Shown here piece by piece: positions 9,605 through 49,018 of a DNA stretch of 64,000 nt. Source of the DNA: a virus; IMG/VR virus record IMGVR_UViG_3300030339_000006. One strand, given 5' to 3'. Position numbers and translations under genes: made by a program. Each line of letters begins with the position of its first letter. Within the stretch, counting starts at the first letter, position 1. The notes under the pieces are model-generated. The model saw nothing but the letters and a program-made list of their open reading frames with translations, was not told the origin of the DNA and ran no database searches.

Positions 9605-11014
9605 TTAGCTATTCATAGCGTCGAGGATTTCCTTGGTCAGGCTATCTTTGTTGGCTGCCGAGTGGTGCAGGTAGTCATCAATGCCTTGTCCACGAGAGAT
9701 CTTACCGAAGAGCTTGGGTTTGGTTGCGAGATATCTCATCACCCGTACTTTACGCTCTTCCTCAGGCAGGTCTGCGTGGGAACGGTAACGAATGCCACGA
9801 CCGATAACCTGGTTGATCTTCTCGTTGTTAAAGTGAGGCTCCATCCCTTGGAACGAACGGGTGCCCTTTAAATCCAAGCCTTCTGAGCCGGCTGACGACA
9901 GGAGGATCGCTTTGATCTTCCCTTCGTTGTAGTCACTGATAGCCTGCTTACGTTCCGAAGACGTGGTACTGCCGGTAAACATCGCAGCAGAAATCTTTTT
10001 CGCCACCAGTTGTCGGTGGGCCTCTTCCAGGCCGGAGCCCAGGTAGTTAGAGTAGATGATACCCTTGTGATTAGGATTATCCTTCATCATCGTCTCAAAG
10101 TCACTGACTATTCGATCAATCTTTGGCGCCGACGGTTTACGCGTGGTGTATTTAGCGTCGGTGTTACTGATCTGTCGAACGGCCTGAGAGAAGGCGTTCA
10201 GGTTCTGCTGCTCTTTCTTATCCACTGGAAGGTTCATACGGATCTTCAAGCGAAGAGGGAGGGGGATCGTGTCTTCTGCGTACTGGTAAGCCCGCAGCTG
10301 GTCCGGAGACATGTCAACGTGCACCATTTCGTCAGTACGGTCCGGGAAGTCCTGCTTCATTTCCTTCATGGCATCGAAGCGGTCCATGTACTCTTTACCC
10401 AGGCGACGCAGTTCCTTCTTGTTCTTCACAGACAGCTTATCACCGGGTTTCACCCCGAGAATACGCAGGAGTAGGCCTGGCTTGACTTTGTCATGCTGGA
10501 TGAAGGCCTGGTCGAACTTGTCTGGATCTTCCGGCATGACTGACTTGCCGGCCGTCGTGTTGATGACCTTGGCGATGTCAGAACGCTGGTTGTAGATCGG
10601 CGTACCGGTTAACAGCAGGCGTTGCTTGGCGGAACGAGCCAGATCGCGTACGGCGTCGGAGCGAAGCCCCGGGTTACGCACACGGTGGGCTTCATCGAGC
10701 ACCACCAAATGGTAGCCTTTGGCCTTGTAATCCTTCGCTTTTCTCTGAGCACCTTCGTAGGAATCGATGTCGATGTTCGAACGGATGTGCTTAGGGATGT
10801 TGTGCTTGTCCATTTCCTTCTGCATGTTGTCACGCAGCGGAGCCGGAACGATGAACAGGGCACGGGCCCCTGGATTCTTCTCAATGACACCGCGGGCGGA
10901 ATCGAGACTCTCGAGGGTCTTCCCTGACCCAAGAGAATGATAGGCCAGGACAGATTTGCCCGAGCCGATCTTGTCGGATATCCGCTGTTGGTGGTCCTTC
11001 AGCGTGTAATCCAT
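9605..11014 (-). CDS. SNF2/SWI2-family SF2 helicase/ATPase
   Basis: SLGSGKT, VLDEAH, LLLTGTPI.N, GSEGLDL, QVIGRGIR; start overlaps stop of RNAP beta'-C gene (TAATG). Confidence 0.85.
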   Translation of the reverse strand: MDYTLKDHQQRISDKIGSGKSVLAYHSLGSGKTLESLDSARGVIEKNPGARALFIVPAPLRDNMQKEMDKHNIPKHIRSNIDIDSYEGAQRKAKDYKAKGYHLVVLDEAHRVRNPGLRSDAVRDLARSAKQRLLLTGTPIYNQRSDIAKVINTTAGKSVMPEDPDKFDQAFIQHDKVKPGLLLRILGVKPGDKLSVKNKKELRRLGKEYMDRFDAMKEMKQDFPDRTDEMVHVDMSPDQLRAYQYAEDTIPLPLRLKIRMNLPVDKKEQQNLNAFSQAVRQISNTDAKYTTRKPSAPKIDRIVSDFETMMKDNPNHKGIIYSNYLGSGLEEAHRQLVAKKISAAMFTGSTTSSERKQAISDYNEGKIKAILLSSAGSEGLDLKGTRSFQGMEPHFNNEKINQVIGRGIRYRSHADLPEEERKVRVMRYLATKPKLFGKISRGQGIDDYLHHSAANKDSLTKEILDAMNS

Positions 11015-12834
11015 TAGTAACGACCTCCTTCGCCTTCACCGAACGCACCGCCGAGAATGTACGGGGCAATAGGGTCAGTGCTGCTTGATGGTGATTCCAT
11101 ACCTTCTGCTGCGGCCTCAGTCAGCGTCTTGCCGATCTGTTTGAACGCCAGGCGGGATAGCCAGTTGGTGTCTTTCAACTTCGCTGTCTTAATCCCCGGT
11201 ACCATTGGCTCTACTTCCAAGCCAGAACGAGACGTGTGAACCTCGTCGATACCGTGTTTGCTCAAATACGCCAGGTGGTTGCTGTCCAGGATTGTTCCCG
11301 GGGTCAACTCCAAGACTGGACGAGCCAGTTTCTGTCCGGTAGCACGCTCAATAGGCATGACCTGCGAGTCACGAGCCATTTCGTCGGCAATGTGGTTCAC
11401 GGTCACAACCTGGCCCGGAAGATACGCCGTAGTACCCGGATCCTTCACCTTCACGTATTTGACCAGATTCTTCGCGATCAGATCGAAGTGACGCGGGTCC
11501 AGTCCGCCGCCGTAGATTTCATACAGCTTGTTGGACATGTAGCGACGACCGTCACCGATGCCACGCAGGGCCACCAGCTCACGGGTGTTGATCGTACCGG
11601 TAGACAGAGCCTCACCGGTCTTCACTTTGTCGCCTTCCTTCACTGCCAGATCCTGGGAGTTCGGGATGAAGTACTCTTTGTCACCGACGTGCAGCGTGGT
11701 ATCCCCGAGAGTCGTGGTCTTGATCGTGTGAACAGAACCGTTACCCTCTGCGATGATCGCTTTGTCCTGGAACTTCTGTGGGTTGACCAAGAGGTTAGAC
11801 GTCAAGTCGTACGGGTTGATGGACTTACCGGATTTCGCGTTATGCTTAGTACCCAGAATCATCTGTGTCAACACTTCGGAGGCCGACTGAGCCGCCACGA
11901 CACCGACGTTCTCTCCGATATCCGGGATGTGACCGTTGGCATTCAGACCGTAACACTTCTTACACACGCCTTCTTTGGCCTGGCAGGTCAGCGTATTGCG
12001 GACTTTGATACTCTTCACGCCGTCGTGTTGCAACTGGCGGTAGTAAGCTTCGTCGATCAGGTGGTTTGTGCCGGCAGTGAAGTGGAAGATTACCTTCTTC
12101 TTATCCGTCGGATCCATCTTCTCGACCAGGCCATTCGTCGTGCCACAGTCGTCTTCCGTGATTACTTCGTGGTACAGGTTCGGAGTGATCGATTTGAACA
12201 TGTCGCCAGGCTTGGAGGTAGACAACTGAGCTCCCACGGTGTTACCGCGTCCCCAGTATGACATGGCCAAGTGTTCGGCGGGACTCAGACCTTCGGCGAA
12301 GGAGTGCATGATCGCCAGTGGGATCGGTGAGCCATCGATCTTCTTTGACTGAATCGGTGAGCTGGTAGCCTGTTGGAGCTGATCCGGGTTACCACGAGCA
12401 CCGGTCTGAGCCATCATAGCCGCCGTCGACTTGCGGGCCACCATGTAGTTCAGGTTCTGGTCGGTCAGCAAGCGTTGATACTTGGTTGACACGTCCAGCA
12501 GTTTTTCACGGCGTTCACGCTCGGAGAGACCCTTCTCGTCGTTCACGTGGTTAGTTGCCGCTTCGTATTCTTTGAGCATGGCATCACGTTCGTCTGAGTC
12601 GTTGTAGTAGTCAGAGAGTGGGGTGGAGTAGCCGTGATCGGTTGCTGTGTGGAAAAACAGGTGTGACAGATTCGAGATCGTGTCAGCTGCTTGATCTCCA
12701 CCGTGGGTAATGACGTTAGCAATCAAATCCTTAACGCCGTTCTTGTTCAGCACTGTGTGCGGGTCGAAGTGCTTCTGTGCTGCTTCCGGTAGCATGCTCT
12801 TAATCTTCAGAGCGCCGGGGGTAATGATTGTCAT
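11014..12834 (-). CDS. rpoC: DNA-directed RNA polymerase beta' C-terminal chain
   Basis: TGARGN, SFAEGL, bridge-helix region, EDDCGT, VRNTLTC..EGVCKKCYG Zn site, trigger loop GENVGVVAAQSASEVLTQMILGTKH, RHFDLI, WLSRLAF. Confidence 0.92.
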   Translation of the reverse strand: MTIITPGALKIKSMLPEAAQKHFDPHTVLNKNGVKDLIANVITHGGDQAADTISNLSHLFFHTATDHGYSTPLSDYYNDSDERDAMLKEYEAATNHVNDEKGLSERERREKLLDVSTKYQRLLTDQNLNYMVARKSTAAMMAQTGARGNPDQLQQATSSPIQSKKIDGSPIPLAIMHSFAEGLSPAEHLAMSYWGRGNTVGAQLSTSKPGDMFKSITPNLYHEVITEDDCGTTNGLVEKMDPTDKKKVIFHFTAGTNHLIDEAYYRQLQHDGVKSIKVRNTLTCQAKEGVCKKCYGLNANGHIPDIGENVGVVAAQSASEVLTQMILGTKHNAKSGKSINPYDLTSNLLVNPQKFQDKAIIAEGNGSVHTIKTTTLGDTTLHVGDKEYFIPNSQDLAVKEGDKVKTGEALSTGTINTRELVALRGIGDGRRYMSNKLYEIYGGGLDPRHFDLIAKNLVKYVKVKDPGTTAYLPGQVVTVNHIADEMARDSQVMPIERATGQKLARPVLELTPGTILDSNHLAYLSKHGIDEVHTSRSGLEVEPMVPGIKTAKLKDTNWLSRLAFKQIGKTLTEAAAEGMESPSSSTDPIAPYILGGAFGEGEGGRY

Positions 12835-12864
12835 GGAGACCTCCGTTTAGTTGATCAACTAGAC

Positions 12865-12883
12865 CTATTTTACAGGGTATAAG
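12865..12883. promoter_or_regulatory. Back-to-back promoters: TAAAATAG (-) and GGTATAAG (+)
   Basis: CTATTTTA-CAG-GGTATAAG in the 72 bp divergent gap between the rpoC-like gene and 12907. Confidence 0.65.
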
Positions 12884-12906
12884 TACTGTAGTGAATAGGA
12901 GAGTCT

Positions 12907-13170
12907 ATGTTCAAAATTCTTAAGAAATACTCTACCACAAGAGTAAGTTACAACGAACGGGCTACAGGTTGTGTAGACTACCTACCCGTTCAAGATCAGA
13001 TCTTCTTCGAAGATCACTACATAGGCGGAATACGCGTGTATCGAAGGATACTCTTCAGAGAAAGGATACCTGTGTACGCGTGGACCGCCAGTGCTGTTAT
13101 GGGCTTTACAGACTGGAAAACAGACTGCCCAGCAGACATTTGGAAACTTTGCACCGGGAAAGATCTATGA
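12907..13170 (+). CDS. Hypothetical protein
   Basis: AGGAG RBS; first gene after GGTATAAG. Confidence 0.6.
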   Translation: MFKILKKYSTTRVSYNERATGCVDYLPVQDQIFFEDHYIGGIRVYRRILFRERIPVYAWTASAVMGFTDWKTDCPADIWKLCTGKDL

Positions 13171-13508
13171 AAACCAAAACTGTACTTGCTTTCGATACAC
13201 CCTTCATCACGTTCAAAGAGGATAACACCGTTTGGGTTTCAGTTGAATCCCTCTCGAACTTCCTCGGCCTGGGTTACGCAGAACAGGTGTACAACCTGTC
13301 CGGCGATACATCCATGCGGGAACTGGGGTTGAAGACCACCACTACCCCTGTCACGAAAGTCATCAGTGATGAGGGCCGGCAGTATCTTTGCATTCGACTC
13401 GAGGATGTCTCATTGTTTGCGGCCACGGCCACACTCGATGATCTCGGGAAGATTGATAACCAAAGACACTGCCGGGATGACCTGCCGGGTCTCCTGGCAG
13501 TATCCTGA
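13167..13508 (+). CDS. Antirepressor-N/Bro-N-like DNA-binding protein
   Basis: MKTKTVLAFDTPFITFKEDNTVWVSVESLSNFLGLGYAEQ resembles P22_AR_N; ATGA overlap with upstream gene. Confidence 0.5.
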   Translation: MKTKTVLAFDTPFITFKEDNTVWVSVESLSNFLGLGYAEQVYNLSGDTSMRELGLKTTTTPVTKVISDEGRQYLCIRLEDVSLFAATATLDDLGKIDNQRHCRDDLPGLLAVS

Positions 13509-13529
13509 GGACCCTTACGGGTCCTTTTT
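13508..13529 (+). terminator. Rho-independent terminator
   Basis: AGGACCC-TTAC-GGGTCCT-TTTT. Confidence 0.75.
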
Positions 13530-13567
13530 AGCTGCTGTGACATCGAAAGTCAGGGTCCTGTTCCCAA

Positions 13568-13781
13568 AATGTTCCAAAGAAAACCCAGATAGGACAAGGG
13601 CTTAGACGATTCTGTGACATTGTTACATCGGAACGTCTCCAACCCACCCTTATTAGAGACATCTTACCCCTATACATACATTACTATGGATCTTTAAATA
13701 GGTATATATAGGATACTACCTACTCTATGGGGATAAAGGGGGTGTGTGTTTAGGGGTGTTGTTCCTGTAACGGTGTCACAG
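13568..13781. repeat. Non-coding dyad-symmetric element, copy 1 (copy 2 at 48811-49018)
   Basis: Identical 28, 47 and 20 nt blocks shared with copy 2; arms CTGTGACA..GTTACA..GGAAC / GTTCC.TGTAAC..TGTCACAG. Confidence 0.9.
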
Positions 13782-14400
13782 CCCGGTCACGATAGTACCC
13801 AATCATGTTACCTGCTGCGTTTCCTACCTTCGAGGCAAGATACGCGGTACCCAAAGATCCCCCGATGGCGAACAATGGGTTTGTCCCATTTGTCATCATA
13901 CGGGCAGCCAGAGGAACGACCGACGCGATACCCAGGGCAGAACCCATGTTTGAGTAACGTGACTGACGATCACTCATGATGTCCACGTGGGTCAGTGCTT
14001 CCGGGATCATATCCACAGAGTCAGCTGCAGCAATCGCTCCGTCTACTACTCGACGTCCGATTGCTCCCCCTACTATAGACCCGCCGATAGCGCCTGCAAC
14101 GCCCGCTGCGACCTTAGCACGCAGTGACCCTGGCATTGCTGCGGCTGCAAGGTAAGAACCCAGCAGAGAGCCTCCTATGCCACCTCCTGACTGGATTACG
14201 TCTTTGGCCACGTACCCCAGGTCATCGATCGGGCGATCCATCAGGGCCACCTTCTCGAGCGGTTTCTGACGGAGCAGAGCACGAATCTTCGCTTTGGCGT
14301 ATGACAGCGCCATTTTATGAGGACGAGGGTCAGTACTCGCCTTCAGCAGCACCTTGATTTCCGGGCTGCGGTATACTTCAGTTACGTTAGAATCCTCCAC
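13750..14400 (-). CDS. Glycine-zipper membrane/virion protein
   Basis: GTG start; LEKVA followed by two GxxxG-rich helical hairpins. Confidence 0.55.
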   Translation of the reverse strand: MEDSNVTEVYRSPEIKVLLKASTDPRPHKMALSYAKAKIRALLRQKPLEKVALMDRPIDDLGYVAKDVIQSGGGIGGSLLGSYLAAAAMPGSLRAKVAAGVAGAIGGSIVGGAIGRRVVDGAIAAADSVDMIPEALTHVDIMSDRQSRYSNMGSALGIASVVPLAARMMTNGTNPLFAIGGSLGTAYLASKVGNAAGNMIGYYRDRAVTPLQEQHP

Positions 14401-14545
14401 GTCTGGCTCCTAATTTCTTTGCACGACGGTACATACCGTTGATCGACATACGGGTGCCACGTAGGAGTCCGCGAAGAGCGATGAAGCTGCCCAGCCCGGC
14501 CCCGATCTTGATCCCCGTCTCCAGATAAGACTTTTGTTCATTCAT
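14387..14545 (-). CDS. Small basic protein with hydrophobic helix (52 aa)
   Basis: Not in track: MNEQKSYLETGIKIGAGLGSFIALRGLLRG...; GGAGG RBS; TAAAATAT motif upstream. Confidence 0.55.
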   Translation of the reverse strand: MNEQKSYLETGIKIGAGLGSFIALRGLLRGTRMSINGMYRRAKKLGARRGGF

Positions 14546-14565
14546 AGTGTTCCTCCATTCAGCTC

Positions 14566-14582
14566 ATATTTTAGGGTATAAG
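14566..14582. promoter_or_regulatory. Back-to-back promoters: TAAAATAT (-) and GGTATAAG (+)
   Basis: ATATTTTA-G-GGTATAAG-CAAG-GTGTAG in divergent gap. Confidence 0.6.
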
Positions 14583-14623
14583 CAAGGTGTAGTAGAAACC
14601 ATTGTACCCCAAAGGAGGTGCCT

Positions 14624-14836
14624 ATGAAATATCGCATTACAGAAAGGATTGCCGGGTTCAACTACGCGGCAGGACTTCTGGCGAGCTCACGTGCCCTAAG
14701 CGATGATGACCTTCGTCTCGCGGTAAATACCATGATCGAAAACGCTGAGATAGCCACAGAGAGCTACCAGCGGGGCGTCGAAGATGCCCTTATGCATTCC
14801 CATCCGTATCTTTCTAGAAGACTCGGCCACTACTGA
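14624..14836 (+). CDS. Hypothetical protein
   Basis: AAGGAGGT RBS. Confidence 0.6.
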   Translation: MKYRITERIAGFNYAAGLLASSRALSDDDLRLAVNTMIENAEIATESYQRGVEDALMHSHPYLSRRLGHY

Positions 14837-14894
14837 TCCCGCGAGGGACATTCTGAATGGTCTTCATTCACAATTTTCCTTAAAGGAGATTTCC

Positions 14895-15248
14895 ATGGAA
14901 ATCTTAAAAACCCCCATCACCTTCAACTTCTGTGGCCTCCTGTTGAAGTTCGTTATTGATCCATCTGGCCGTCGTCTGGTTGATTCCGCCAAGCTTTGGT
15001 CCGACCTGGAACTCTGGCAGCGTCCGGCTCCGGATTGCACTGAGTATCTGTATGAAGAAGATCGCGAGGGGATACCATCCTGGTCGGTCTCCCGGTTCAG
15101 TAACCTAGAGGATCTGAAGAAACGCCACGAGCAACTCTCCACGATCGCTCTGATGAAGGACAACAAAGGTTTCATCCAACTGGGCTTCCTGCTCGAACAT
15201 TACCCACAACTCCTAGCAAAGCTAGATAAGGACTTACAATGTCAATAG
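14895..15248 (+). CDS. Bro-N/antirepressor-N-like protein
   Basis: AAGGAG RBS; ITFNFCGLLLKFVIDPSGRRLVDSAKLWSDLEL. Confidence 0.5.
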   Translation: MEILKTPITFNFCGLLLKFVIDPSGRRLVDSAKLWSDLELWQRPAPDCTEYLYEEDREGIPSWSVSRFSNLEDLKKRHEQLSTIALMKDNKGFIQLGFLLEHYPQLLAKLDKDLQCQ

Positions 15249-15862
15249 AAACATTCAACTTCCACGGTGAATCAATCCGCTTCAACTTAGACACCATGCA
15301 GATCAGCGTTTCGGATATTCTCTCCGTCATCGCCAATGACGTAAGCCAATTTGCCCTTGAGTCTAAATTCTCCTATTGGGTAGGCCTGGATAAAGTCATG
15401 GATGTCATCTCCGAAGGTTCGGATGGTTGCGGTGAATGTGGGGTCTGCACGATCTGGCTGTTGGAATTCGTCCCGACGTTGGTCAAGTGGTTGACCTGGC
15501 AGCATAGCGCCCTCGACCCAATCACGATCAACGAAGACGAATACAGCAAAGGCTTCAAAGAGGTCTACTGGGCACAGAAAGACGCCAAACACACTACCGC
15601 GTATCTGCTCTCAGGTGTTTTCACAGATTTGTACTCCCCGTGGGACGATCGCTGTGAAGTGAAGGTGGGTATGGGATACATTCCGTTAGAGGGTGAATTC
15701 CAGTACCGCGTCGTTCACGTGGTCCGTGATGTTGATATCGTAGAGGATGTCCCGGGTGGCTTCCCGCTCCGCTCTACTCGCTCGGTTACCCTACGTCTGG
15801 GTGTCGAAACGATCATCAAAAGTGCGGATCTCGGCAGCTTGCTCCACACGCTGTCCCGTTAA
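15239..15862 (+). CDS. Bro-N-like N-terminal domain protein
   Basis: MSIETFNFHGESIRF...ISVSDILSVI. Confidence 0.5.
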   Translation: MSIETFNFHGESIRFNLDTMQISVSDILSVIANDVSQFALESKFSYWVGLDKVMDVISEGSDGCGECGVCTIWLLEFVPTLVKWLTWQHSALDPITINEDEYSKGFKEVYWAQKDAKHTTAYLLSGVFTDLYSPWDDRCEVKVGMGYIPLEGEFQYRVVHVVRDVDIVEDVPGGFPLRSTRSVTLRLGVETIIKSADLGSLLHTLSR

Positions 15863-15886
15863 AATCCGGGGTGGAGGTACCACCCT

Positions 15887-16222
15887 ATGATCGAAATTGT
15901 GTACTTGAACGGAACTCCGGTAAATACCATTAAGACTGACGCGATCTACGTCGATGTCGTGAAGTTCTGGAAGGACCTAAAGATCCGCGTGGATCTGGCA
16001 CCCCTTCCTCCTTTCACGGAAATCCTCACGAGCGAATCAGAGAAGAGCTTCGCACTGGGCCAGTACGTGACCCTTGAAGACTTCGTCCAAGCCGTTTCTA
16101 ACATGAACCCGATTGCCATCGATGCAGCTATTCAGCATGCGATTTCCGTCGGTCTCACGGAAGCGGTCACGACTTACTGGGCATCACTGCCGGAGTTCAC
16201 ACCTATCTACAAGCCCCGCTAA
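15887..16222 (+). CDS. Bro-N/antirepressor-N-like protein
   Basis: GGAGG RBS; VYLNGTPVNTIKTDAIYVDVVKFWKDLKI. Confidence 0.45.
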   Translation: MIEIVYLNGTPVNTIKTDAIYVDVVKFWKDLKIRVDLAPLPPFTEILTSESEKSFALGQYVTLEDFVQAVSNMNPIAIDAAIQHAISVGLTEAVTTYWASLPEFTPIYKPR

Positions 16223-16233
16223 GGGGCTTTTTT
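16211..16233 (+). terminator. Rho-independent terminator
   Basis: AAGCCCC-GCTAA-GGGGCTT-TTT. Confidence 0.6.
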
Positions 16234-16244
16234 CGGAAACTGCT

Positions 16245-16877
16245 ATGGATTTTTTCGGTTGTCCAATTGATATCACGGTAGAACGCGGGCAGGTACATAT
16301 CGCCAGCACATCCCTGACTGAAAACCTCATCCTCCCTAAACGATTGGACCGAATGATCCTCGAGACCGACAAGATCCCGTTGGATTTACTCCTTCCAATC
16401 CTCAACCAATTCTCTGATACGAACAAGCAGGGCATCTTCCGCCGCCATCTGATCGAGGCCATCGTGATTGACAGTACGTGGATGACGAAGAAACTCCAGA
16501 AGGTGTATCCTCGCGTCGTTCCCGTCGTCCCGGGGCTTAACGTAACCTGCTACAACGAGGAAGGCCTCTGGATTGACGCGATGGATCTGGAGTATGACTT
16601 AAATCCCAAAGCTCGCCCCGCCCGTATCCCCCGATTATCCATGCGTCCATTCGACATGATGTATCGCCCTCGCCTGGCTCATCTGGAGCAGATGGAACGC
16701 GTCCGCTACTTTATCCCACTGCGTAGCCTCGACGATTACCTGGCCGCCAGCCGCAATCTGGCCAACGACAAGAACGTCCGGGCGTGGAAAGGACGCATCG
16801 AATCTGCCCTCCTGGATTACTGGGAGAACCTGGCGGACCTATCCTCTATCGGCTTACCGGAGAAATACCGTGCTTAA
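16245..16877 (+). CDS. Bro-N/antirepressor-N-like protein (possibly two domains)
   Basis: MDFFGCPIDITVERGQVHIASTSLTENL and internal VPGLNVTCYNEEGLWIDAMDLEYDL. Confidence 0.45.
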   Translation: MDFFGCPIDITVERGQVHIASTSLTENLILPKRLDRMILETDKIPLDLLLPILNQFSDTNKQGIFRRHLIEAIVIDSTWMTKKLQKVYPRVVPVVPGLNVTCYNEEGLWIDAMDLEYDLNPKARPARIPRLSMRPFDMMYRPRLAHLEQMERVRYFIPLRSLDDYLAASRNLANDKNVRAWKGRIESALLDYWENLADLSSIGLPEKYRA

Positions 16878-17151
16878 AAACGTTGTCATTATCTTCGGGG
16901 TATCCCTCCCAATCATGGAGGATGGCCACCTGGTGTACGTCGACCCTGGTGAGCTTCTGAAGAAGCTGTCGATAGACCGCGAGCTGATCCCGTGCAATCG
17001 TCGAGTTGGCTGGTGGGATGGCTTCTGCCACATCTCTAAGGCCACGATGACTTCGGAGTACTTAGTGTATATGCTCAGGACTTTAAGGGGTTCACAGGAA
17101 GAGATCGAGAAGTACAACATCTACGCTGATGAGATTGAGCGACGGGTGTAA
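16870..17151 (+). CDS. Bro-N/antirepressor-N-like protein
   Basis: GTG start, GGAG RBS; VIIFGVSLPIMEDGHLVYVDPGELLKKLSI. Confidence 0.5.
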   Translation: MLKNVVIIFGVSLPIMEDGHLVYVDPGELLKKLSIDRELIPCNRRVGWWDGFCHISKATMTSEYLVYMLRTLRGSQEEIEKYNIYADEIERRV

Positions 17152-17182
17152 AAGAAAAGGGCCCCGTTAAGGGCCCTTTTTT
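17151..17182. terminator. Bidirectional terminator between convergent blocks
   Basis: AAAAGGGCCC-CGTTAA-GGGCCCTTTTTT. Confidence 0.75.
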
Positions 17183-17267
17183 AGGCAGGAAAATGAAATT
17201 TCAACAGCATTCACAACATTCAATAACATAAGGAGGACTTCCACTATAGCTAAGTCCTCCTGGACTG

Positions 17268-20200
17268 TCAACCCGTAATTCGAATCGGAGTGTCACTTTG
17301 TACGTGACCTGCTTCGAGAGCCGCCAGTGCTTCAGCTTCTGTCTTGAATTCCACGACTTTCTTATCCATGTTCGGCTTAGTCAGGTGAACTGAACCGAGG
17401 ATCGCTTCGTGGCCCGGTGCGAACATCGGGTTGCCGTAACCTTTACGAGCGTCGTGCAGGTTGCTCGAAGGCATCAACTTCTCCTTCGCTTCCCGTACGG
17501 CTTCCGGAGTCATCGGCACGAACATCGACATGGCGTCACCGTCGTAGTCGGCTGCGAACGCCGGTAGGTGGAGGATGTTCACCCCGATCGTCTTACCGTC
17601 CGTCGGCACTGCCTTCATCGCCATGATGTTGGTACGCATCAGGGTCGGTGCACGGTTCAGCATGACCGGAACGGTATCCACGATGTGGTTAAAGCTCGCC
17701 GTCGCTGCGTCGTTACGTCCTTCGTAGGCGTTCTTCGCTTCCGCCAGGTCATACCCTTTCTGGCTCAGGTCACGAATGATGTGCATCTTGTACATCGTCC
17801 AGAGCTGATCAGCGGGGATACGGGCCTCGTTGAAACCAATATCTGGCGCCGCGTAGATCGTACCACGACCGGAGAAGTCCTGTTTCTTCTTCAGGATCTT
17901 ATCCTGGAAGTAACCCGTCTTCGGTCCACCGGTACCTTCCAGCTGACGCATCAGGCCTTTGGTCCCCTTCTGCTTCGCTTGGAAGTCAATCGGGTCACCG
18001 CCGTCCATGATTGCTTTCGCCCCGTTGTACAGGTCACGACGCAGATCGACCATCCCTTCCATGTCTGGAGAGATCATGTCCATCCCGATTTCGTCATCCA
18101 GACGCTTCAAGCGGCCATTTACCAGCATGTGGTGTTTGTACAGCTCGTTGACGTCAGCGTAGCCCAGACGGTTACCCGAAATGGTATACGGACGCATGAC
18201 CGGAGGAATTACCGGCATGTGGTGCAGCACGAGTGCCTTCGATGGATCCGTAAAGCCCTGCTTGGCCAGACCGGCCAGGTACTTCATCTTCTTCACGATG
18301 GTGTCACGCTTGGTGGCAGACTTCTCGTCCATCACTTTGCCACGCAGGTGGGCCAGCTCGTCGTCGACGTGAATGTCTTTCAACATCGCTTCGATCGCGT
18401 GTCCGCCGACCAGTGCTTCCCCACCCTCTTCTGCCGCTGCTTTCTCCAGCGTGTTGGAAACGGTCAGCTGTTTCACCAGAGCATCGTCCTTGTGGGTATC
18501 GACCAGGTCGAACAGGCCTTTACCGCGACGAATCACCCCATACTTCCCGGAGATCAGGTTCGTCATGTGCTCTTTGCTCAGACCCAGCAGGGCACGAGCA
18601 GGATCTTCCATGACCGGGTTAACGATCGGTTCCATCAGCTTGTAGTGAGACCAGTTGTTACCTTCTGGACCACCGGTCACGTCCATATCGAACAGGCCGC
18701 CCTTCACTGGAGAGACGTTACGAGCCAAGATCATGTCCGGCTTGTGAATCTCACCGCTCGAGTTACCTAGCACTTCACGGTCGGTCATTGGGCCGGCCAC
18801 GAGGTTACCGTTACGCTCAGAGACGTTGATGCCTGAACCACGCAGGTAATCGAAGAACTTACGCGTGGCGAAAGTCGTCTTCGGCTGCGGCAGTGGCAGG
18901 CCACGCATGAACTTGTCCCAGTAATCGTGGGTGTCAGAGTGATCACCACCTTCAGACTTCACGGTACCGATCTCTTTCAAGTTAGCACGAGCGTTGGAAC
19001 CCAACAGGCCCAGGAACTCCATGTAACCCACGGCCTTAGCACCATCGTCACCACCCTTAGTAGGCTGGGCGTTGTTGTCGTAGCCACCAACTGAACGGGC
19101 CGAGTAGTTCGCATCGGTCGTCTTGTTCAGCTTCAGGAAGTACTGTGGCCCCGTCAGGACATTCGTACCGTACACGTGACCGGTTTTCGGATCGATAACG
19201 GTGTCGGTGTCAGACAGGCCGTGCTCTTTTAGCTTAGCCATCAAGTTCTTGACGGTGTTGCCTTCTTCGTAGACTTTGGTCTTGTACGGCTGCCCGGTCT
19301 TCTGAGCAATCTTACCGGCCGCAGCTTCGAAGATCTGACCCAGGTTGATACGGGACGTTACTGACGCTGGGTTCAGAATCAGGTCGAACGGCTTACCGGT
19401 AGTACCGCTGGTAGGCATTTCGTCGTCTTCGAGAACCGCTGAGACCACGCCTTTGTTCCCGTGGAAGCCAGTGACTTTATCGCCGATCTCCAGGTTACGT
19501 TCACAGCGAACCATGATGCGAATCTTCTTCCCGTCAACGCTGGTGTCGGTCACGGTACCTTTTTCTTTGTGGTCCCAGACTTCTGCAGCAGAACGGTACG
19601 GGTTCACCAGCGTCTTATGCAGACGGCCGAGCACCATGTCCGTTTCGGTCAGTTGACGCTGCTCGAGAACGGCGAAGACCGGGTCACCGTATTCCAGCAC
19701 GGCACCCTGCTTAGCGAAGCCACGGGAGTCCAGCTTGGAGAGCTGCTCTGCAGTGAACTTGCCGGCGAAGGCTGCTTTGTACTTGTTGACGTCCGCGATG
19801 GTGTCTTTACCCATCTCGTATTCCACTTTGTACGCGTGGTTGGACTGCAGCTTCTCCGTCGCAGAGCGAGACACGACGATACCATCTTCGTGGTTGAACC
19901 CTTTGAATGGCATGTACGCCGTTTCCAGGTTCTTACCGATCGCCAACTGGCCGTCTTTGGTGTAGTTGTTGTCCGTCAGTACCTGACCGGCTTCAACCTG
20001 AGCACCGACCGGGTGCAGGTTAGGTTCGTCATCGTGGAAGCCTTTCATGTTGAACGGCAGGTTCTGCACGAAGTCGACGGTGTGTTCTTTCCCGTCGTGA
20101 GCCTTGATCACCATCTGAGACGGTGTGGACTTCACTACGGTACCCGTCACCGGCGCCACGGTAGACACGATCTTACCGATCGCAGAAACGAAGGTCTCGC

Positions 20201-21848
20201 CGTTATCCGCAACGGTCTGCACCAGCGGAGTCTCACGGTTCGTCAGGGACAACGCCTGTGGGATCGCCTTGCCTGCCATGGTCAGACGGCCCGGGTGGTT
20301 GGTGTTCAGGAACGGCACGAGGTTAGTCGTGATCGTGTACATGTCCGTACCGGATGGAATCCAGTATTGAACCTGGCCGCGAGGCACGTTCTTGAACTCG
20401 CCGTGAACCTGAGCCTGGACGATTGGCTTACCGTTGTCCTTCTCACCCGGGAACCCGATGGTGTGCGTCATGATTTCGTTGGCAGACAGATAAACCTTCT
20501 TGCCTTGATTATCGACGGCACGAGCGTACATCCCACCTTCTTTGTCACGGTGAGCCGTGATGGTGAAACGCTGGTCCAGACCGGCAGTTGACGATTCTGG
20601 TGTACGGGACGGGTCAATGATACCGAGCTGAGAGGGGTGCACGTTACGGCTCTCCGTCGTGGCCTGGCGCTCAGAGGACATCCCGCCGTCACCGGCAGCA
20701 ATTAGGGTCACCTTACCGACGTTCTCGATAGACTCGACAGGGTTGGTCTCATCCGGCGTAGAGCTCAGCTGAGAACCGATGATGAAGTCCGAGTAAATCT
20801 TGTTGAACGGCTTGGCCGGGATCACTTCACGCAGGCTCGGGGCCGCGTCATTGATTCGGCTCAGGTTGTACTTGATGCGGTCAAAGGACTTCCCAACGGT
20901 CTGGTGCAGCTTGTTCGCTTCGAAACGACGACCGATGAAGTCCGGCAGGTTCTGAACACGCTTGAACTGCAGGGAGTCACGGTTATCTTCCGGACGCTTC
21001 TTCGAGTACACTTCGACGATGTTCTTCATCGCACGCAGCAGTGTCTCTGGCTCGATCCCACCGAAGGACTTCCCAAGGGTTGTCGCGGTAGTCTCTTTGT
21101 CCAGAGTCATTTCGGCCAGACGGCTCTTCAGCGCCACGCCCATTTCCTCAGTGGAAACACTGCGGGACTGTTCTTTGCGGTCAACCAAACGCTTGTACAG
21201 CTGGCCGAGGATCAGGTCTTCCTTACCCTTGGTGATCTTGCGGTTAGCCATCCACACGTCAGACGGAACGAAACGCATCACGTCGGCGTCGGACAGGCCA
21301 AAGCCCTTGGTCATCAACGGAGCGATCGGAATGTGCAAGTTCTTGCCGTTGATCTTGGAGAAGTAAATCTCCATGGTCTTCGAATCCAGGCCGAGAGAGA
21401 ACGTCGCACCCTTACCGGTGTTGATGTTCGTTTCCAGCTCGCCGTTGTTGGTCTTACGGGTGTAAACCCCGGGACGCAGCTGCATTAAGTTGGCGACGGA
21501 ATAGTTGTTCCCTTTGTACAGTAGGGTATGCTTGTTGGTGACGTGGAAGGTGTCAGCCAGGGCGAAGTTCTGCACGCGGTCAACCAGTTTCCCGGTCGCA
21601 CGGTCGTGCAGCATCAACGTACCGCGGATTGGGTACGTCAGAGAACGCGACTTCAAGATCGCGTCCTTCTCATCTGCCGTGGTGTAGTTCTTCTTGTCGA
21701 CATGCATGTCCTCTACCGACAGGGTGTACTTACCCGTCTCGATAGGGAACTGTTGCTTGATACCCTGGAGCATCGCGTCATCAGTGGCCGCGTTGATTGC
21801 GACCGGTGACGAGAAGATAGGCATCAATTCACTTGCTGTCTTAGGCAT
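17268..21848 (-). CDS. rpoB: DNA-directed RNA polymerase, beta fused to beta' N-terminal half
   Basis: beta motifs FPI, LRPGVY, VHPSQLGIIDPSRTPE, GFNHEDGI, IGDKVTGFHGNKGVVS, ILNPASVTSRINLGQI, YMEFL..TVKSE; then beta' motifs GEIHKP..GGLFD, PVIPPVMRP, KKQDFSGRG, LNRAPTL and catalytic AADYDGD (17535-17555). Confidence 0.95.
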   Translation of the reverse strand: MPKTASELMPIFSSPVAINAATDDAMLQGIKQQFPIETGKYTLSVEDMHVDKKNYTTADEKDAILKSRSLTYPIRGTLMLHDRATGKLVDRVQNFALADTFHVTNKHTLLYKGNNYSVANLMQLRPGVYTRKTNNGELETNINTGKGATFSLGLDSKTMEIYFSKINGKNLHIPIAPLMTKGFGLSDADVMRFVPSDVWMANRKITKGKEDLILGQLYKRLVDRKEQSRSVSTEEMGVALKSRLAEMTLDKETTATTLGKSFGGIEPETLLRAMKNIVEVYSKKRPEDNRDSLQFKRVQNLPDFIGRRFEANKLHQTVGKSFDRIKYNLSRINDAAPSLREVIPAKPFNKIYSDFIIGSQLSSTPDETNPVESIENVGKVTLIAAGDGGMSSERQATTESRNVHPSQLGIIDPSRTPESSTAGLDQRFTITAHRDKEGGMYARAVDNQGKKVYLSANEIMTHTIGFPGEKDNGKPIVQAQVHGEFKNVPRGQVQYWIPSGTDMYTITTNLVPFLNTNHPGRLTMAGKAIPQALSLTNRETPLVQTVADNGETFVSAIGKIVSTVAPVTGTVVKSTPSQMVIKAHDGKEHTVDFVQNLPFNMKGFHDDEPNLHPVGAQVEAGQVLTDNNYTKDGQLAIGKNLETAYMPFKGFNHEDGIVVSRSATEKLQSNHAYKVEYEMGKDTIADVNKYKAAFAGKFTAEQLSKLDSRGFAKQGAVLEYGDPVFAVLEQRQLTETDMVLGRLHKTLVNPYRSAAEVWDHKEKGTVTDTSVDGKKIRIMVRCERNLEIGDKVTGFHGNKGVVSAVLEDDEMPTSGTTGKPFDLILNPASVTSRINLGQIFEAAAGKIAQKTGQPYKTKVYEEGNTVKNLMAKLKEHGLSDTDTVIDPKTGHVYGTNVLTGPQYFLKLNKTTDANYSARSVGGYDNNAQPTKGGDDGAKAVGYMEFLGLLGSNARANLKEIGTVKSEGGDHSDTHDYWDKFMRGLPLPQPKTTFATRKFFDYLRGSGINVSERNGNLVAGPMTDREVLGNSSGEIHKPDMILARNVSPVKGGLFDMDVTGGPEGNNWSHYKLMEPIVNPVMEDPARALLGLSKEHMTNLISGKYGVIRRGKGLFDLVDTHKDDALVKQLTVSNTLEKAAAEEGGEALVGGHAIEAMLKDIHVDDELAHLRGKVMDEKSATKRDTIVKKMKYLAGLAKQGFTDPSKALVLHHMPVIPPVMRPYTISGNRLGYADVNELYKHHMLVNGRLKRLDDEIGMDMISPDMEGMVDLRRDLYNGAKAIMDGGDPIDFQAKQKGTKGLMRQLEGTGGPKTGYFQDKILKKKQDFSGRGTIYAAPDIGFNEARIPADQLWTMYKMHIIRDLSQKGYDLAEAKNAYEGRNDAATASFNHIVDTVPVMLNRAPTLMRTNIMAMKAVPTDGKTIGVNILHLPAFAADYDGDAMSMFVPMTPEAVREAKEKLMPSSNLHDARKGYGNPMFAPGHEAILGSVHLTKPNMDKKVVEFKTEAEALAALEAGHVQSDTPIRITG

Positions 21849-22116
21849 TGCGTTTCTCCATGTAGATTACAACGGCAGTATAGATCCCGGTGGCAGACGA
21901 GATGGAGTCTTTACGCTCCACCACAATGACACTGCCCTGCAGGCTTCGAGTCAGGAGAGACTCCATCTGCAGCGTGTCATCGTCTTCACCCCCGATAGTG
22001 AAGTACCCGATACGGTACTGCCACTCGTCCATGTTAATCCCTAACTGATCAACGGCCGGGGTAACCCCGGGCATTGCGTTCCCTTCATTACTTGGTTCCA
22101 GCGGATTCTTGGCCAT
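21841..22116 (-). CDS. Small protein between portal and RNAP
   Basis: 91 aa; AAGGAG RBS; overlaps both neighbours. Confidence 0.6.
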   Translation of the reverse strand: MAKNPLEPSNEGNAMPGVTPAVDQLGINMDEWQYRIGYFTIGGEDDDTLQMESLLTRSLQGSVIVVERKDSISSATGIYTAVVIYMEKRNA

Positions 22117-23800
22117 CTTGTTCTCCTTGTTGTGCCGGTGGCAGGTTTTCGATGATGTTCATAACGCTCTGATACATCGTCTGGTCTTTCGCCTGTAGAG
22201 CCAACAGAGCTTGCTGCTGAGCTTCTGGAGGAGTCTGCAGAATCTTCGCAGCTTCGTCATAGGCTTCTTTACGGTTGTCAGCGAATCCTGAGCTGTCTTT
22301 ATCAGACGCCAGGCCTTTGGATTTCGCGAAGATTGCTTTCTCGACGAGGTCTTTCGTTTCGACCTGGCTTTCAGCAGAGGAGACGGTATCGTTCATCATC
22401 TTCTCGAGTTCTTCATCATAATCCATTCCGAACGCTTCTAACAGGGTAGATGCAGACAAAATGTTAGATTTCCACATGTCCATCATGGACGCTTTCAGTG
22501 CTTCGTTATCCGTAAGTTTAAACGGCACGAGCTTCACTTCGGCAATCTCCAGAGACAGATATGACGCGATCTTCTCCATGATCCATTCGATCATATCCTT
22601 GAGCTGGCCCACGTAGTTGTTCATCGTGTTTTCCAGCAGACGCAGACCGATGGTTGAAGACGTCCAGTTAGTCGTACCAGACAGCAGTTCACGGGATACC
22701 CCCATGGACATCAGCTGTTGCTCTTCAGCGTACTGCAACTCTTGGGAGACCAACAGGGAACGTCCCTGGCCACCGATTTGCTGCGAACCGATCGGGATCG
22801 GAGAGATCAGCACGTGGTTCGGGTCCGACTTCATCTGACGGATTGTCCCCTTCATGTGCTTCGCGAAACCACGCAGTGACATCTGGGCCACCGGGTCGGC
22901 GTTCGCTGAGTTCTGCTGCGGGAAGATAACACGCAACGGAACCATGTGTTCTGCCGCCACTGCTTCGTTAGCCTTGCGGAGCATTGCCTGGTAGAACACC
23001 AGACCGTAGTGAGAGATCAACGGTGGGATGCCCAGCCCATCAATCATGTTACCCATCGAAATGGACTTCATGTGGTAGATGTTGGTGTCATCGAACAGGT
23101 AATCTTTACCAAAGCGTACGGCTTCAACCATAGACCACGGCACGGTAGACAGGAACAGTGGGTCGCCCATCATGATCTTCTTCTTCACGTCGCCAGGAAT
23201 CTGATAGTAGAACTCGGATTCTCCGGTCACCGGGTTGTGGTTCAGAGAGACGTTCTCTGGTTTCCACTTGATCAGGTTGATGCGAGACACGTCACGGGAC
23301 TTAGTGTCGACCAATTTGTAGTTCACGATGTTGTGACAGTTCGGGCATTCCCCGACGAATTGCCATTTCTTGAACGCTGCGAAGCCAGAACGCATGGCAG
23401 TCTTCACTTCGTAGGACGAGCGGCAGTTCGGGCAGTGCACGTGGCGGTCAATCGGGAAGTAGATCGACGTGTAAACGTTACCGAGCGTGTAGTAATCGAA
23501 ACCGGCGTCACAGAGCTTCTCTTTGAACTTGATGCTCTTGAAGATCTGCTTGTACGTCTCGATGGTTTTCTCGTTCTTGGAGTCCGTCAGGAACTCAGTG
23601 ATCGGGTAAGAGGAAAGCTTACGGATCACTTCGGTGGTAGTCGGCGCCTGGGTAGTGATGTAGCGGGACCACTTGATAATGTCATGAAAGCTACGCGGGA
23701 TGAACTGGTTCGCTTGCGTAAAGAAAGGACTCGGCAGTTGGCCGACCTCGTAGCTGTCATACATTCCACTCGGGGTGGGGTTAAGTCCGAACATTGACAT
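22088..23800 (-). CDS. Portal protein (probable) with CxxC..CxxC insertion
   Basis: 570 aa; DYYTLGNVY, IYHMK..GLGIPPL, MGVSRELL, ILSASTLLE..G.D.DEE portal-like patterns; two CPNC. Confidence 0.65.
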   Translation of the reverse strand: MSMFGLNPTPSGMYDSYEVGQLPSPFFTQANQFIPRSFHDIIKWSRYITTQAPTTTEVIRKLSSYPITEFLTDSKNEKTIETYKQIFKSIKFKEKLCDAGFDYYTLGNVYTSIYFPIDRHVHCPNCRSSYEVKTAMRSGFAAFKKWQFVGECPNCHNIVNYKLVDTKSRDVSRINLIKWKPENVSLNHNPVTGESEFYYQIPGDVKKKIMMGDPLFLSTVPWSMVEAVRFGKDYLFDDTNIYHMKSISMGNMIDGLGIPPLISHYGLVFYQAMLRKANEAVAAEHMVPLRVIFPQQNSANADPVAQMSLRGFAKHMKGTIRQMKSDPNHVLISPIPIGSQQIGGQGRSLLVSQELQYAEEQQLMSMGVSRELLSGTTNWTSSTIGLRLLENTMNNYVGQLKDMIEWIMEKIASYLSLEIAEVKLVPFKLTDNEALKASMMDMWKSNILSASTLLEAFGMDYDEELEKMMNDTVSSAESQVETKDLVEKAIFAKSKGLASDKDSSGFADNRKEAYDEAAKILQTPPEAQQQALLALQAKDQTMYQSVMNIIENLPPAQQGEQDGQESAGTK

Positions 23801-30144: not shown

Positions 30145-30417
30145 ATGAAGATCGAGATGAAAGACAACCTGTTAACGCTGACACCAGAAGGCCGGTGGGA
30201 GCGGAAGACTATTGAGGATAAAACTAAAAAGGCGATGGCGGCTTTTGGCGTTTCTTCTCGTGTTGGACGGATTTTCGCAGCAGTGACGATCGCTACCGAG
30301 CTCGGTCATGACATCTCGGTAGACAATCGCCAAGTCACGGTGCAGGATCAGTCGTTCTCGATATACCCCAGAGGACTGGACGGCATGTCCATCCCTGAAG
30401 TACTCATCAACCCGTAA
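30145..30417 (+). CDS. Hypothetical protein
   Basis: GGAG RBS; 3' end overlaps convergent sigma gene. Confidence 0.45.
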   Translation: MKIEMKDNLLTLTPEGRWERKTIEDKTKKAMAAFGVSSRVGRIFAAVTIATELGHDISVDNRQVTVQDQSFSIYPRGLDGMSIPEVLINP

Positions 30418-31199
30418 CCCGCCTCCATAACTTCTCCAATACTCTCAAGACTCTTCGCCAACGTCTTCTTGACGAACGCTTGATTCACTTTAGGATCGTT
30501 GATGTGCTTCACGATGTCGGCCGGCTTCATCTCCGTGCCGTCGATCAGACCGTATGTCAGCTTAACGATTGTGCTATCAGGATAAGGCAGTGCGTTAATT
30601 GCACCCATGAGACTTTTGTCTTCGAGCTCGTTGACCAGTTCATCGATCGGGTTAACCGTTGGCATCTCTGCCTCCTTCATGTTATCCAGATAGAAGGTGA
30701 TGTACTGGGTCTTACTGAGCTCTTTCAAATCCCGCACGGATGCATTCGGGAATTCTTCACGCAGCTCACACAGCGTTGGGACAACATCGAGACCTTCAAT
30801 GTGCTTCTTCAGCTTGGTCGCCAGTTGTTGCTTCTGAGCGGGAAGAGCCACCAAACGCCACTTGGACATCTCTTTGAGTTGGCGTTGCATGACCCACCAG
30901 CCGGCGTACGTCAATAGACGAACTCCCGAGGTCGGATCAAATTTGTCGAGACCTGCAAGCAAGCCTTCATTTCCGGCTGCGATCAGGTCCTCGAATTGCT
31001 CCAGGTTACCGCGGGAATACTTCTTGGCCCGTTTGAACACGTAGCGGAGGTTTGAGCAGATCAACTTATCGCGAGCGGCCTTCTTTACATTAGGGTTAGT
31101 GGCGGGATCGAAATAAGTCGCCAGCAGTACCGTTTCGTCCTCACGGGATAGAATCGGGTAGCGGTCGCAGATCTCTTCGTAGTATTTTGTCAGGCCCAT
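30348..31199 (-). CDS. Sigma70-family RNA polymerase sigma factor
   Basis: Region 1.2 (YPILSREDE..L); region 2 ARDKLICSNLRYV..AKKY..FEDLIAAGNEGL...DKFDP..G.RLLTYA.WW; degenerate region 4. Confidence 0.9.
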   Translation of the reverse strand: MGLTKYYEEICDRYPILSREDETVLLATYFDPATNPNVKKAARDKLICSNLRYVFKRAKKYSRGNLEQFEDLIAAGNEGLLAGLDKFDPTSGVRLLTYAGWWVMQRQLKEMSKWRLVALPAQKQQLATKLKKHIEGLDVVPTLCELREEFPNASVRDLKELSKTQYITFYLDNMKEAEMPTVNPIDELVNELEDKSLMGAINALPYPDSTIVKLTYGLIDGTEMKPADIVKHINDPKVNQAFVKKTLAKSLESIGEVMEAGYGLMSTSGMDMPSSPLGYIEND

Positions 31200-48778: not shown

Positions 48779-48802
48779 GGGCCCACTTCGGTGGGCCTTT
48801 TT
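48779..48802 (+). terminator. Rho-independent terminator
   Basis: GGCCCAC-TTCG-GTGGGCC-TTTTT. Confidence 0.8.
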
Positions 48803-48810
48803 GTTTCTAG

Positions 48811-49018
48811 AATGTTCCAAACCTTTCCCTTATCCGTCAAGCACTTACACCCTTCTGTGACATTGTTACATCGGAACGTCAGAAAGTCACCCTTATTAGA
48901 GACATCTTACCCCTATACATACATTACTATGGATTCAAAATAAGGTATATATAGGATGCTACTACCCTCTAGGGACTAAAGGGGGTGTGTGTTTAGCCGC
49001 GTTGTTCCTGTCACAGAA
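48811..49018. repeat. Non-coding dyad-symmetric element, copy 2
   Basis: Same orientation and block spacing as 13568-13781; bounded by TTCTGTGACA (48853) / TGTCACAGAA (49009). Confidence 0.9.

Follow-up and report, generated by a model that had tools for sequence, protein, structure and literature searches.

An RNA polymerase of a phage lineage in which beta is fused to the catalytic part of beta-prime and beta-prime is cut before the TTxGR motif

According to the current view, no cellular multisubunit RNA polymerase can do without an alpha-type platform for joining its large subunits, beta and beta-prime; to our knowledge, the sole exceptions are the highly diverged enzymes of phages phiKZ and AR9, whose assembly is still debated. 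Bacterial fusions of RpoB (beta) to RpoC (beta-prime) were reportedly described in Helicobacteraceae and Wolbachia, by Zakharova in 1999 and by Lane and Darst in 2010. In these RpoBC proteins, the C terminus of beta is joined in frame to the N terminus of beta-prime (PMC7483510). They are full-length (~2800-2900 amino acids, or aa) and chromosomal, with beta-prime intact and alpha and omega kept. Here, we analyze 64,000 nucleotides of DNA of a peat-soil phage from IMG/VR record IMGVR_UViG_3300030339_000006 (this whole stretch is "the window"). It encodes an RNA polymerase in which beta is likewise fused in frame to beta-prime, but the fusion ends after the catalytic barrel, some 40% of the way along beta-prime, and the remainder of beta-prime is a separate gene.

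Cuts in beta-prime are also known. In cyanobacteria and plastids, beta-prime is divided into gamma (RpoC1) and RpoC2 in the same surface region after the barrel, and the halves are recognizably bacterial. The polymerases of phiKZ and AR9 are phage-encoded, have no alpha or omega, and have beta-prime cut after the barrel; beta is split too (4-5 chains), there are two sets, one in the virion and one not, and these highly diverged enzymes use specificity subunits that are not of the sigma70 type (PMC7598289). The mReC phages, which are tailed phages of ~100-300 kilobases (kb), have beta and beta-prime that are detectable with cellular profiles (PMC7481178). The mReC table lists separate beta (~900-1560 aa) and beta-prime (~900-1390 aa) proteins, often in two sets, and no beta-prime of ~600 aa (PMC7481178). 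Finally, gp66 of the crAss-like phages and YonO have both double-psi barrels on one polypeptide. These proteins are extremely diverged, most of the beta and beta-prime modules are gone, and sigma is not used.

The polymerase of the window comprises two chains, with these features:

17268..21848 (-): chain 1 gene, 1526 aa; beta plus beta-prime ~19-554 (E. coli numbering), from Pfam, structure matches and alignment
18822..21848 (-): beta portion of chain 1, residues 1-1009; compact; from PF04565, PF00562 and alignment to Salmonella RpoB
18807..18848 (-): beta/beta-prime junction, linkerless (...YLRGSGINV/SERNG...), with the join at 18821/18822
17271..18821 (-): beta-prime-N portion of chain 1, residues 1010-1526; clamp helices, lid/rudder region and beta-prime double-psi barrel, from PF04997 and PF00623
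17535..17555 (-): catalytic loop AADYDGD, with the Asp triad intact (alignment)
18651..18692 (-): place of the missing N-terminal zinc-binding domain of beta-prime (C70/C72/C85/C88), with the short Cys-free loop FDMDVTGGPEGNNWSH instead
18399..18497 (-): variable segment, residues ~1118-1150; the site of the second cut in three-chain relatives
20694..20786 (-): equivalent of cluster I of the rifampicin pocket; Q513S, H526N, R529K and S531T (E. coli numbering), in a gapless stretch of the alignment
11014..12834 (-): chain 2 gene (beta-prime-C), 606 aa; starts at the TTxGR equivalent; Rpb1 domains 4 and 5

On the beta side of chain 1, Pfam identifies Rpb2 domain 3 (PF04565, residues 366-432) and Rpb2 domain 6 (PF00562, residues 617-932, E = 4e-54). 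On the beta-prime side, it identifies Rpb1 domain 1 (PF04997, residues 1174-1253) and Rpb1 domain 2 (PF00623, residues 1384-1456). Among solved structures, residues 48-1016 of chain 1 match residues 49-1063 of a bacterial beta (8gzg_C), residues 1143-1523 match residues 162-533 of E. coli beta-prime, and chain 2 matches beta-prime from residue ~570 onward. The top matches of both chains are bacterial beta and beta-prime, not phiKZ or AR9.

We also aligned the proteins of the window, its closest annotated relative, Salmonella phage Arash (OQ632216), and Vibrio phage D69 to Salmonella RpoB and RpoC, which have the E. coli lengths. In this alignment, the beta portion lacks the lineage-specific inserts of E. 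coli, but it keeps the equivalent of the flap-tip helix and the beta double-psi barrel. The C-terminal end of chain 1 lies opposite beta-prime residue ~554. A 32-column gap lies opposite the zinc-binding domain of Salmonella beta-prime in all three aligned phages, none of which has a Cys there. Across the two chains, all of the conserved regions of beta and beta-prime are found once each, in colinear order, and are strongly conserved. The four substitutions in the rifampicin pocket are at positions (Q513, H526, R529 and S531 of beta) known to confer rifampicin resistance, and the enzyme is probably insensitive to rifampicin.

A preliminary description of this DNA had proposed that the 1526-aa open reading frame (ORF) is colinear with a compact beta and continues into beta-prime without a stop at ~18810-18835; that both double-psi barrels, along with the catalytic DxDGD, are on this one polypeptide; that the C-terminal part of beta-prime is a separate 606-aa gene 4.4 kb away; and that the proteins are recognizably bacterial. 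Our results agree on each point, and the matches to solved bacterial structures, a kind of check that it had proposed, are colinear for both chains.

At the junction, the end of beta (LRGSGINV, ending at residue 1009 and position 18822) aligns with ...IRSLGINI of Salmonella. The five residues SERNG occupy the place of beta's final five residues, and beta-prime follows from about residue 19. Thus, there is no linker, and ~18 N-terminal residues of beta-prime are gone. A stop or frameshift in the reads had been named as what would overturn the fusion. We found neither: independent Logan contigs from four other peat runs, none of them flagged as a possible source, bridge 18807-18848 and match it exactly, gaps included (0 differences, 0 gaps). 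Likewise, the junction is in an open frame in all 32 related loci that we examined (29 from IMG/VR and 3 annotated phage records). The length of the junction, measured from anchor to anchor, is 39 residues in 134 of 147 phage rows and 38-40 residues in all 147. This invariant length points to one ancient fusion event under tight constraint. AlphaFold2 (AF2) modeling of the excised junction module (residues 840-1150) was uninformative (mean pLDDT of 53.7).

These results also bear on whether the gene is an artefact or is decaying, for which mis-assembly, a frameshift in an rpoB-rpoC pair, and pseudogene formation come into question. Besides the identical bridging by independent runs and the open frame in the relatives, the orthologue of chain 1 in Arash was detected with 100% peptide coverage, and the sequences are strongly conserved. 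We found nothing that speaks for this explanation, which the bridging contigs and the open frame refute.

The start of chain 2 (M-TIITPGA) lies opposite K-DTTVGR of Salmonella beta-prime. In relatives that have a single chain, the sequence runs without interruption through this site (...VxVxG-KxTTxGR...). In the window, a stop plus a Met occupy this site, and zero residues are lost. The preliminary description had put the split before TTxGR and noted that this differs from cyanobacteria. This is about right: the first residues of cyanobacterial RpoC2 chains align with residues ~15-21 of chain 2, which places the window's cut ~15-20 residues further upstream. Also, in contrast to cyanobacteria, beta is fused to beta-prime-N, and the C-terminal half lacks the large insert in the trigger loop. 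Chain 2 retains the bridge helix, all four Cys of the second Zn site, the His of the trigger loop, and, near its C terminus, region H (TLTEAAAEG...). Its trigger loop is free of inserts, including the E. coli-type insert. When we co-folded residues 1300-1526 of chain 1 with chain 2 and a 91-aa protein encoded nearby, the score was 0.00, which gives no verdict either way on this assembly.

A separate 245-aa ORF outside the window (G000:C1:157442-158179; L040:943-1680), with no Pfam match, contains a stand-alone segment of the second Zn site of beta-prime (...EDNCGT...C-x7-C-x2-C) that is 34% identical to residues 225-294 of chain 2.

The window's enzyme is not a one-off; the phage lineage to which it belongs is very large, and the cultured phage Arash is a member. 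Chain 1 is 80% identical to gp206 of Arash and chain 2 is 74% identical to gp216, with the same synteny. Vibrio phage D69 is more distant (55% for chain 1 and 53% for chain 2), as are Vibrio phages D148 and D181 (also ~55%). All four phages have the same architecture as the window, including the two-chain cut, the block of portal, small ORF and polymerase genes, and a helicase gene after beta-prime-C; D181 and D148 additionally have an intron in the beta part. The window has all of the features that mark the Arash-like lineage: a linkerless junction whose length is fixed, the cut ahead of TTxGR, and portal and small ORF neighbors. The 29 related loci from IMG/VR are mostly on contigs of 150-190 kb.

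To examine the distribution of the fusion more broadly, we used residues 800-1526 of chain 1, which span the junction, as the query for an exhaustive profile-free search of protein clusters grouped at 50% identity. We found 1339 representative clusters with E < 1e-30. The best 150 of these 1339 all had E < 1e-100, and when we mapped these 150 on both chains, nearly all of them crossed the junction in a single alignment. They form two main classes: single chains with beta::beta-prime of 1935-2090 aa (longer if they contain inserts), and proteins that end exactly at the window's cut. For instance, cluster P0084 is a single chain of 2046 aa, and its contig carries tail-sheath-like genes. Cluster P0014 is a distant two-chain relative (1481 aa, ~40% identical); on its phage contig, a sigma gene lies upstream, and a gene 2.9 kb downstream encodes a beta-prime-C of 597 aa. 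The layout is common to hundreds of phages, most of them uncultured.

To place these forms in order, we built trees from the region that spans the junction, using FastTree (148 rows, one outgroup) and IQ-TREE (LG+C20, 61 rows, with two Proteobacteria and two Firmicutes as the outgroups). In the IQ-TREE analysis, the whole phage family is monophyletic (support of 100), the two-chain forms are one nested clade (99), the window and Arash are in a 12-row clade (100), and the three-chain forms fall inside the window's clade (85). The two methods agree that the single-chain forms are basal and paraphyletic. This nesting suggests that the fusion came first, the cut before TTxGR second, and a cut near beta-prime residues 140-165 third; we treat the root with caution because the outgroups are distant bacteria. 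On these trees, the fusion is an old and fixed feature of the lineage, while the cuts in beta-prime are derived and variable.

The three-chain forms are a sister clade (50-54% identity) in which the large gene ends early, near residue 1115-1140, having covered beta and just ~115 residues of beta-prime. A separate gene of ~380 aa, which also forms its own protein cluster (P0042), encodes beta-prime ~168-565. The large gene ends in TAA or TGA, the downstream ATG is at a conserved ...GGxAF... motif, and the gaps range from 0-37 nucleotides up to 2 kb. Rfam found no intron at the gaps between chains 1 and 2 of L017, L021, L032 or L035, and gaps of 0-37 nucleotides are too short for one, so we rejected introns as the explanation and consider these to be true protein splits. 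We also rejected the joining of chains 1 and 2 in L020 by readthrough with an amber suppressor, as the in-frame stop is TAA. As for mobile endonucleases as a general cause of the cuts, just one ORF in a gap is clearly related to endonucleases (L035, RRXRR family, E = 8e-33). In three relatives, the C terminus of the ORFs between chains 1 and 2 (L017:13339-15243, L021:4678-5340 and L032:11779-12360) weakly resembles a J domain, below threshold (E = 3e-4 to 9e-3), and these ORFs also share a segment of the glycine-zipper type.

Elsewhere in these genes, there are interruptions of another kind. D181, D148 and L019 (IMG/VR) have a group I intron (RF00028, 100-108 bits) with a homing endonuclease in the beta part. 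These introns are at query residue 516/517, and each adjoins a homing-endonuclease ORF of ~205 aa. D181 has a third group I intron, immediately upstream of its portal-like gene. The introns are at:

L002:10533-10813: group I intron (RF00028)
L019:11536-11817: group I intron (RF00028)
L002:6736-6943: group I intron (RF00028)

LAGLIDADG inteins of ~500-600 aa are found directly after DxDGD in ~20 clusters of the two-chain type (such as P0036, P0089, P0061 and P0050). Introns and inteins leave the protein product unchanged. Also, P0008, P0036 and P0089 have an inorganic-pyrophosphatase-like domain (PF18823) inserted in beta.

How does this enzyme compare to the described systems? Unlike the fusions of Helicobacteraceae and Wolbachia, the window's protein has lost the beta-prime N-terminal residues and the Zn domain, it ends past the barrel, and neither alpha nor omega accompanies it. 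A single chain with all of beta and all of beta-prime is not found in the window; it is found in the basal members of the family (those of 1935-2090 aa). Relative to phiKZ and AR9, the window's phage has one polymerase set, a beta that is unsplit and fused, sequences that are closer to bacterial ones, and two genes of the sigma70 family. Unlike gp66 and YonO, chain 1 has both barrels while the enzyme keeps the full module set. As for the mReC phages, we tried six metagenome identifiers in their supplementary files and found none of them, nor any pair of lengths of ~1500 and ~600. Of two mReC markers, the terminase (PF03237) is present in the genome; the capsid (PF07068) had no match, but this profile also matched nowhere in the control.

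The preliminary description had seen no alpha or omega subunit in the window. We extended the search to the complete 176-kb virus record that contains the window, and we found no match to the profiles for alpha (PF01000 and PF01193) or omega (PF01192) in the complete genome; the same profiles were positive in 14/14 control genomes. So the phage does not encode a canonical alpha2-beta-beta'-omega core. Using tblastn, we found just one polymerase set in the complete genome. A weak match to PF01193 (E = 0.04), which we considered as a diverged alpha, comes from a shadow frame within a P22_AR_N (antirepressor-like) gene, and we rejected it.

The genome does encode two sigma70-family factors. These and the neighbors of the polymerase genes are:

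30348..31199 (-): sigma70-family factor, 283 aa; PF04542, phrog_351; counterpart of gp196 of Arash
G000:C1:162024-162728 (outside the window): second sigma70-family ORF, FliA-like, 234 aa; 77% identical to gp10 of Arash
22088..23800 (-): portal-like gene; phrog_16240; gp204 of Arash is annotated as portal; overlaps the 91-aa ORF
21841..22116 (-): 91-aa ORF; overlaps the start of the polymerase gene by 8 nucleotides; conserved in position
9605..11014 (-): SNF2-family helicase gene; PF00176, PF00271; the orthologue in Arash is gp217

The portal-like gene, the 91-aa ORF and the polymerase gene form one co-directional block of overlapping genes. The last base of the helicase gene is the first base of the span of the beta-prime-C ORF, so that the helicase gene abuts the stop of beta-prime-C.

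Many of these proteins were detected in a published proteomics analysis of Arash particles. gp206 had the most spectra of any protein (3516, with 100% coverage), and gp216, the sigma factor gp10, and the helicase gp217 had 1210, 467 and 1148 spectra, respectively (PMC10585845). Using the gene lengths, we computed 2.0-2.4 spectra per residue for gp206, gp216, gp10 and gp217, and ~1.5 for the portal protein. Equal spectra per residue for these four proteins is the pattern of a stoichiometric complex that is carried in the particle. The orthologue of the 91-aa protein (gp205) and the second sigma factor (gp196) are absent from the list of detected proteins (PMC10585845). By analogy with Arash, whose orthologue was detected in sucrose-purified particles, we infer that the polymerase of the window's phage is carried in its particle.

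We think it likely that the two chains, taken as a whole, are a complete core polymerase of the bacterial type that belongs to the phage, works without alpha, uses the phage's own sigma, and is delivered in the particle. Chain 1 provides beta, head-to-tail with beta-prime past the catalytic barrel, and chain 2 provides the remainder, so that together they contain a complete, conserved catalytic core. The covalent link between beta and beta-prime would take over the alpha dimer's job of holding the large subunits together, and chain 2 would dock on chain 1 as the cyanobacterial beta-prime docks on gamma. Promoters would be recognized by phage sigma factors bound to the retained clamp helices and flap tip. 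The enzyme would be a late product, expressed from one block together with the portal gene, and would travel in the particle with one sigma factor (of the gp10 type) and the SNF2 helicase. Transcription of the injected DNA could then start independently of the host's polymerase. There are precedents for parts of this scheme: the phiKZ and AR9 polymerases function in the absence of both alpha and omega (PMC7598289), rpoB and rpoC are naturally fused in some bacteria (PMC7483510), and, according to its title, Severinov 1996 (reference 49 of PMC7483510) introduced the split sites of archaea and chloroplasts into the large RNA polymerase subunits. More tentatively, and with some doubt, we suggest that this is a minimal self-sufficient holoenzyme, with two chains and a phage sigma factor, in which the link replaces alpha, which is borne in the virion with an SNF2 motor, and whose boundaries were re-cut repeatedly without loss of function.

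Several points weigh against a phage-owned enzyme that works like the bacterial one and is delivered in the particle. First, the Asn of the catalytic loop (NADFDGD) is replaced by Ala in the window's whole clade (AAD or AGD), while most of the wider family retains it, and the equivalent of the trigger-loop Arg is Gly in chain 2. In E. coli, this Asn has a role in reading the sugar of the nucleoside triphosphate. Given these two changes, the kinetics or the sugar selectivity may differ from those of the bacterial enzyme. Second, we infer the activity, subunit composition and promoter use of the enzyme from its sequence. Third, phage sigma factors redirect the host's polymerase in T4-like phages and in many jumbo phages (PMC7824862). 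Fourth, the Arash particles were purified by sucrose only, and among the 116 proteins detected, out of 272, are ribonucleotide reductases and kinases (PMC10585845), which makes carry-over from the lysate likely. Fifth, the Arash spectra were searched against a database of phage proteins only (PMC10585845), so alpha from the host could not have been seen.

The purification of the Arash particles bears on whether the polymerase acts only within the cell, as an abundant middle or late transcriptase, with its signal in the particles due to carry-over. The presence of metabolic enzymes in these preparations fits this explanation, which was raised by the authors of the Arash study (PMC10585845). But gp206 is the top protein by spectra, and its spectra per residue equal those of the sigma factor and the helicase and are at or above that of the portal protein. 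Also, the gene overlaps the portal block and lies among structural genes. And because there is a single polymerase set, a phage that uses its own enzyme for early genes must bring that enzyme along. We consider a purely intracellular role to be improbable.

The blind spot for host proteins in the Arash proteomics, along with the lack of a phage alpha in the genome, would be compatible with a hybrid enzyme. In a hybrid, the phage would provide the catalytic subunits and sigma, and the host would provide its alpha dimer, and perhaps its omega, as the platform on which the phage's chains assemble. Since the sequences are far nearer to bacterial beta and beta-prime than those of the phiKZ types, the alpha-binding surfaces might survive. 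However, a fusion that is fixed and invariant in length across hundreds of clusters is what we would expect if it replaced the assembly platform, and there are precedents for phage polymerases that lack alpha (PMC7598289). Association of a hybrid with the particle would require that a host protein be packaged. The hosts or sources are also diverse (Salmonella, Vibrio, peat and marine), so dependence on one host's alpha seems unlikely. Overall, a hybrid enzyme is an unlikely explanation.

The two sigma factors could instead serve the host's polymerase, and the phage polymerase could use some other, unrecognized initiation factor. gp226 of AR9 and gp68 of phiKZ are initiation factors that are not of the sigma type. 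Phage sigma factors that redirect the host's enzyme are common (PMC7824862). In contrast, gp10 of Arash was found in the particle preparations at the same level of spectra per residue as the polymerase, and the distant two-chain relative has its sigma gene ~10 kb upstream of the polymerase gene. The clamp-helix and flap-tip regions are retained as well. We view this explanation as quite improbable, and we prefer a phage polymerase that uses the phage's own sigma factors.

Turning to the neighboring genes, the SNF2 helicase gene immediately follows beta-prime-C in members of the Arash-like clade; in the three-chain clade, no more than ~5 kb separate it from the polymerase genes. The helicase may be a RapA-like partner of the polymerase. 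Orthologues of the 91-aa ORF are in the same position in 25 or more loci. The protein had no match in Pfam or PHROGs. The AF2 model has a beta-alpha-beta-beta core, with pLDDT > 90 over residues 30-88 and a disordered N terminus. Fold searches with this model gave no meaningful match (the best Foldseek hit had E = 0.04, with a dodecin-like topology, and the best VIA hit had Z = 5.4). We rejected the 91-aa protein as a candidate for omega because its fold is not omega-like.

The genome contains 30 copies of GGTATAAG, versus ~5 expected. All but one of these are on one strand, mostly 25-45 nucleotides upstream of start codons, and they are often followed by a GTGTA box. This strand is opposite to that of the polymerase genes. 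In the window, the motif is found on the (+) strand at 12876, 14575, 23860, 24483, 28478, 39388, 45406, 47672, 51936, 55056, 59943, 60836 and 62445. It is a candidate for a class of phage promoters. Also, a non-coding element of ~210 base pairs occurs twice, at 13559-13771 and 48802-49014 (81-86% identity); the first copy is between the polymerase genes.

Our search of the literature found no paper that describes this fused-and-split architecture. The Arash study says nothing of the fusion, the cut, or the missing alpha and omega (PMC10585845). A 2026 review treats the multisubunit polymerases of phages as being without sigma, alpha or omega, and phage sigma factors as serving the host's enzyme. 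The sequences are already public and are partly annotated, but the architecture of the lineage is apparently undescribed. In the published records of Arash and the Vibrio phages, the genes are named just "subunit beta" and "beta-prime" or are "hypothetical", and our analysis corrects these labels.

This lineage has a more bacterial-like enzyme than phiKZ or AR9, which seemingly solves the problem of assembly by fusing beta to beta-prime and which still apparently uses sigma70-type factors. If this is true, then these enzymes would be a third, undescribed class of phage multisubunit polymerase. They would also be a natural experiment on which subunit boundaries are tolerated by an RNA polymerase of the cellular type: the one-, two- and three-chain forms, together with the forms with introns and inteins, map where such an enzyme can be cut. 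This could be of use in engineering a minimal polymerase and in understanding the origin of split polymerase genes. Because the lineage has cultured members (Arash and Vibrio phages D69, D148 and D181), transcription, rifampicin resistance and injection can be tested at the bench. The window's phage probably transcribes its genes with its own sigma factors and polymerase instead of the host's enzyme.

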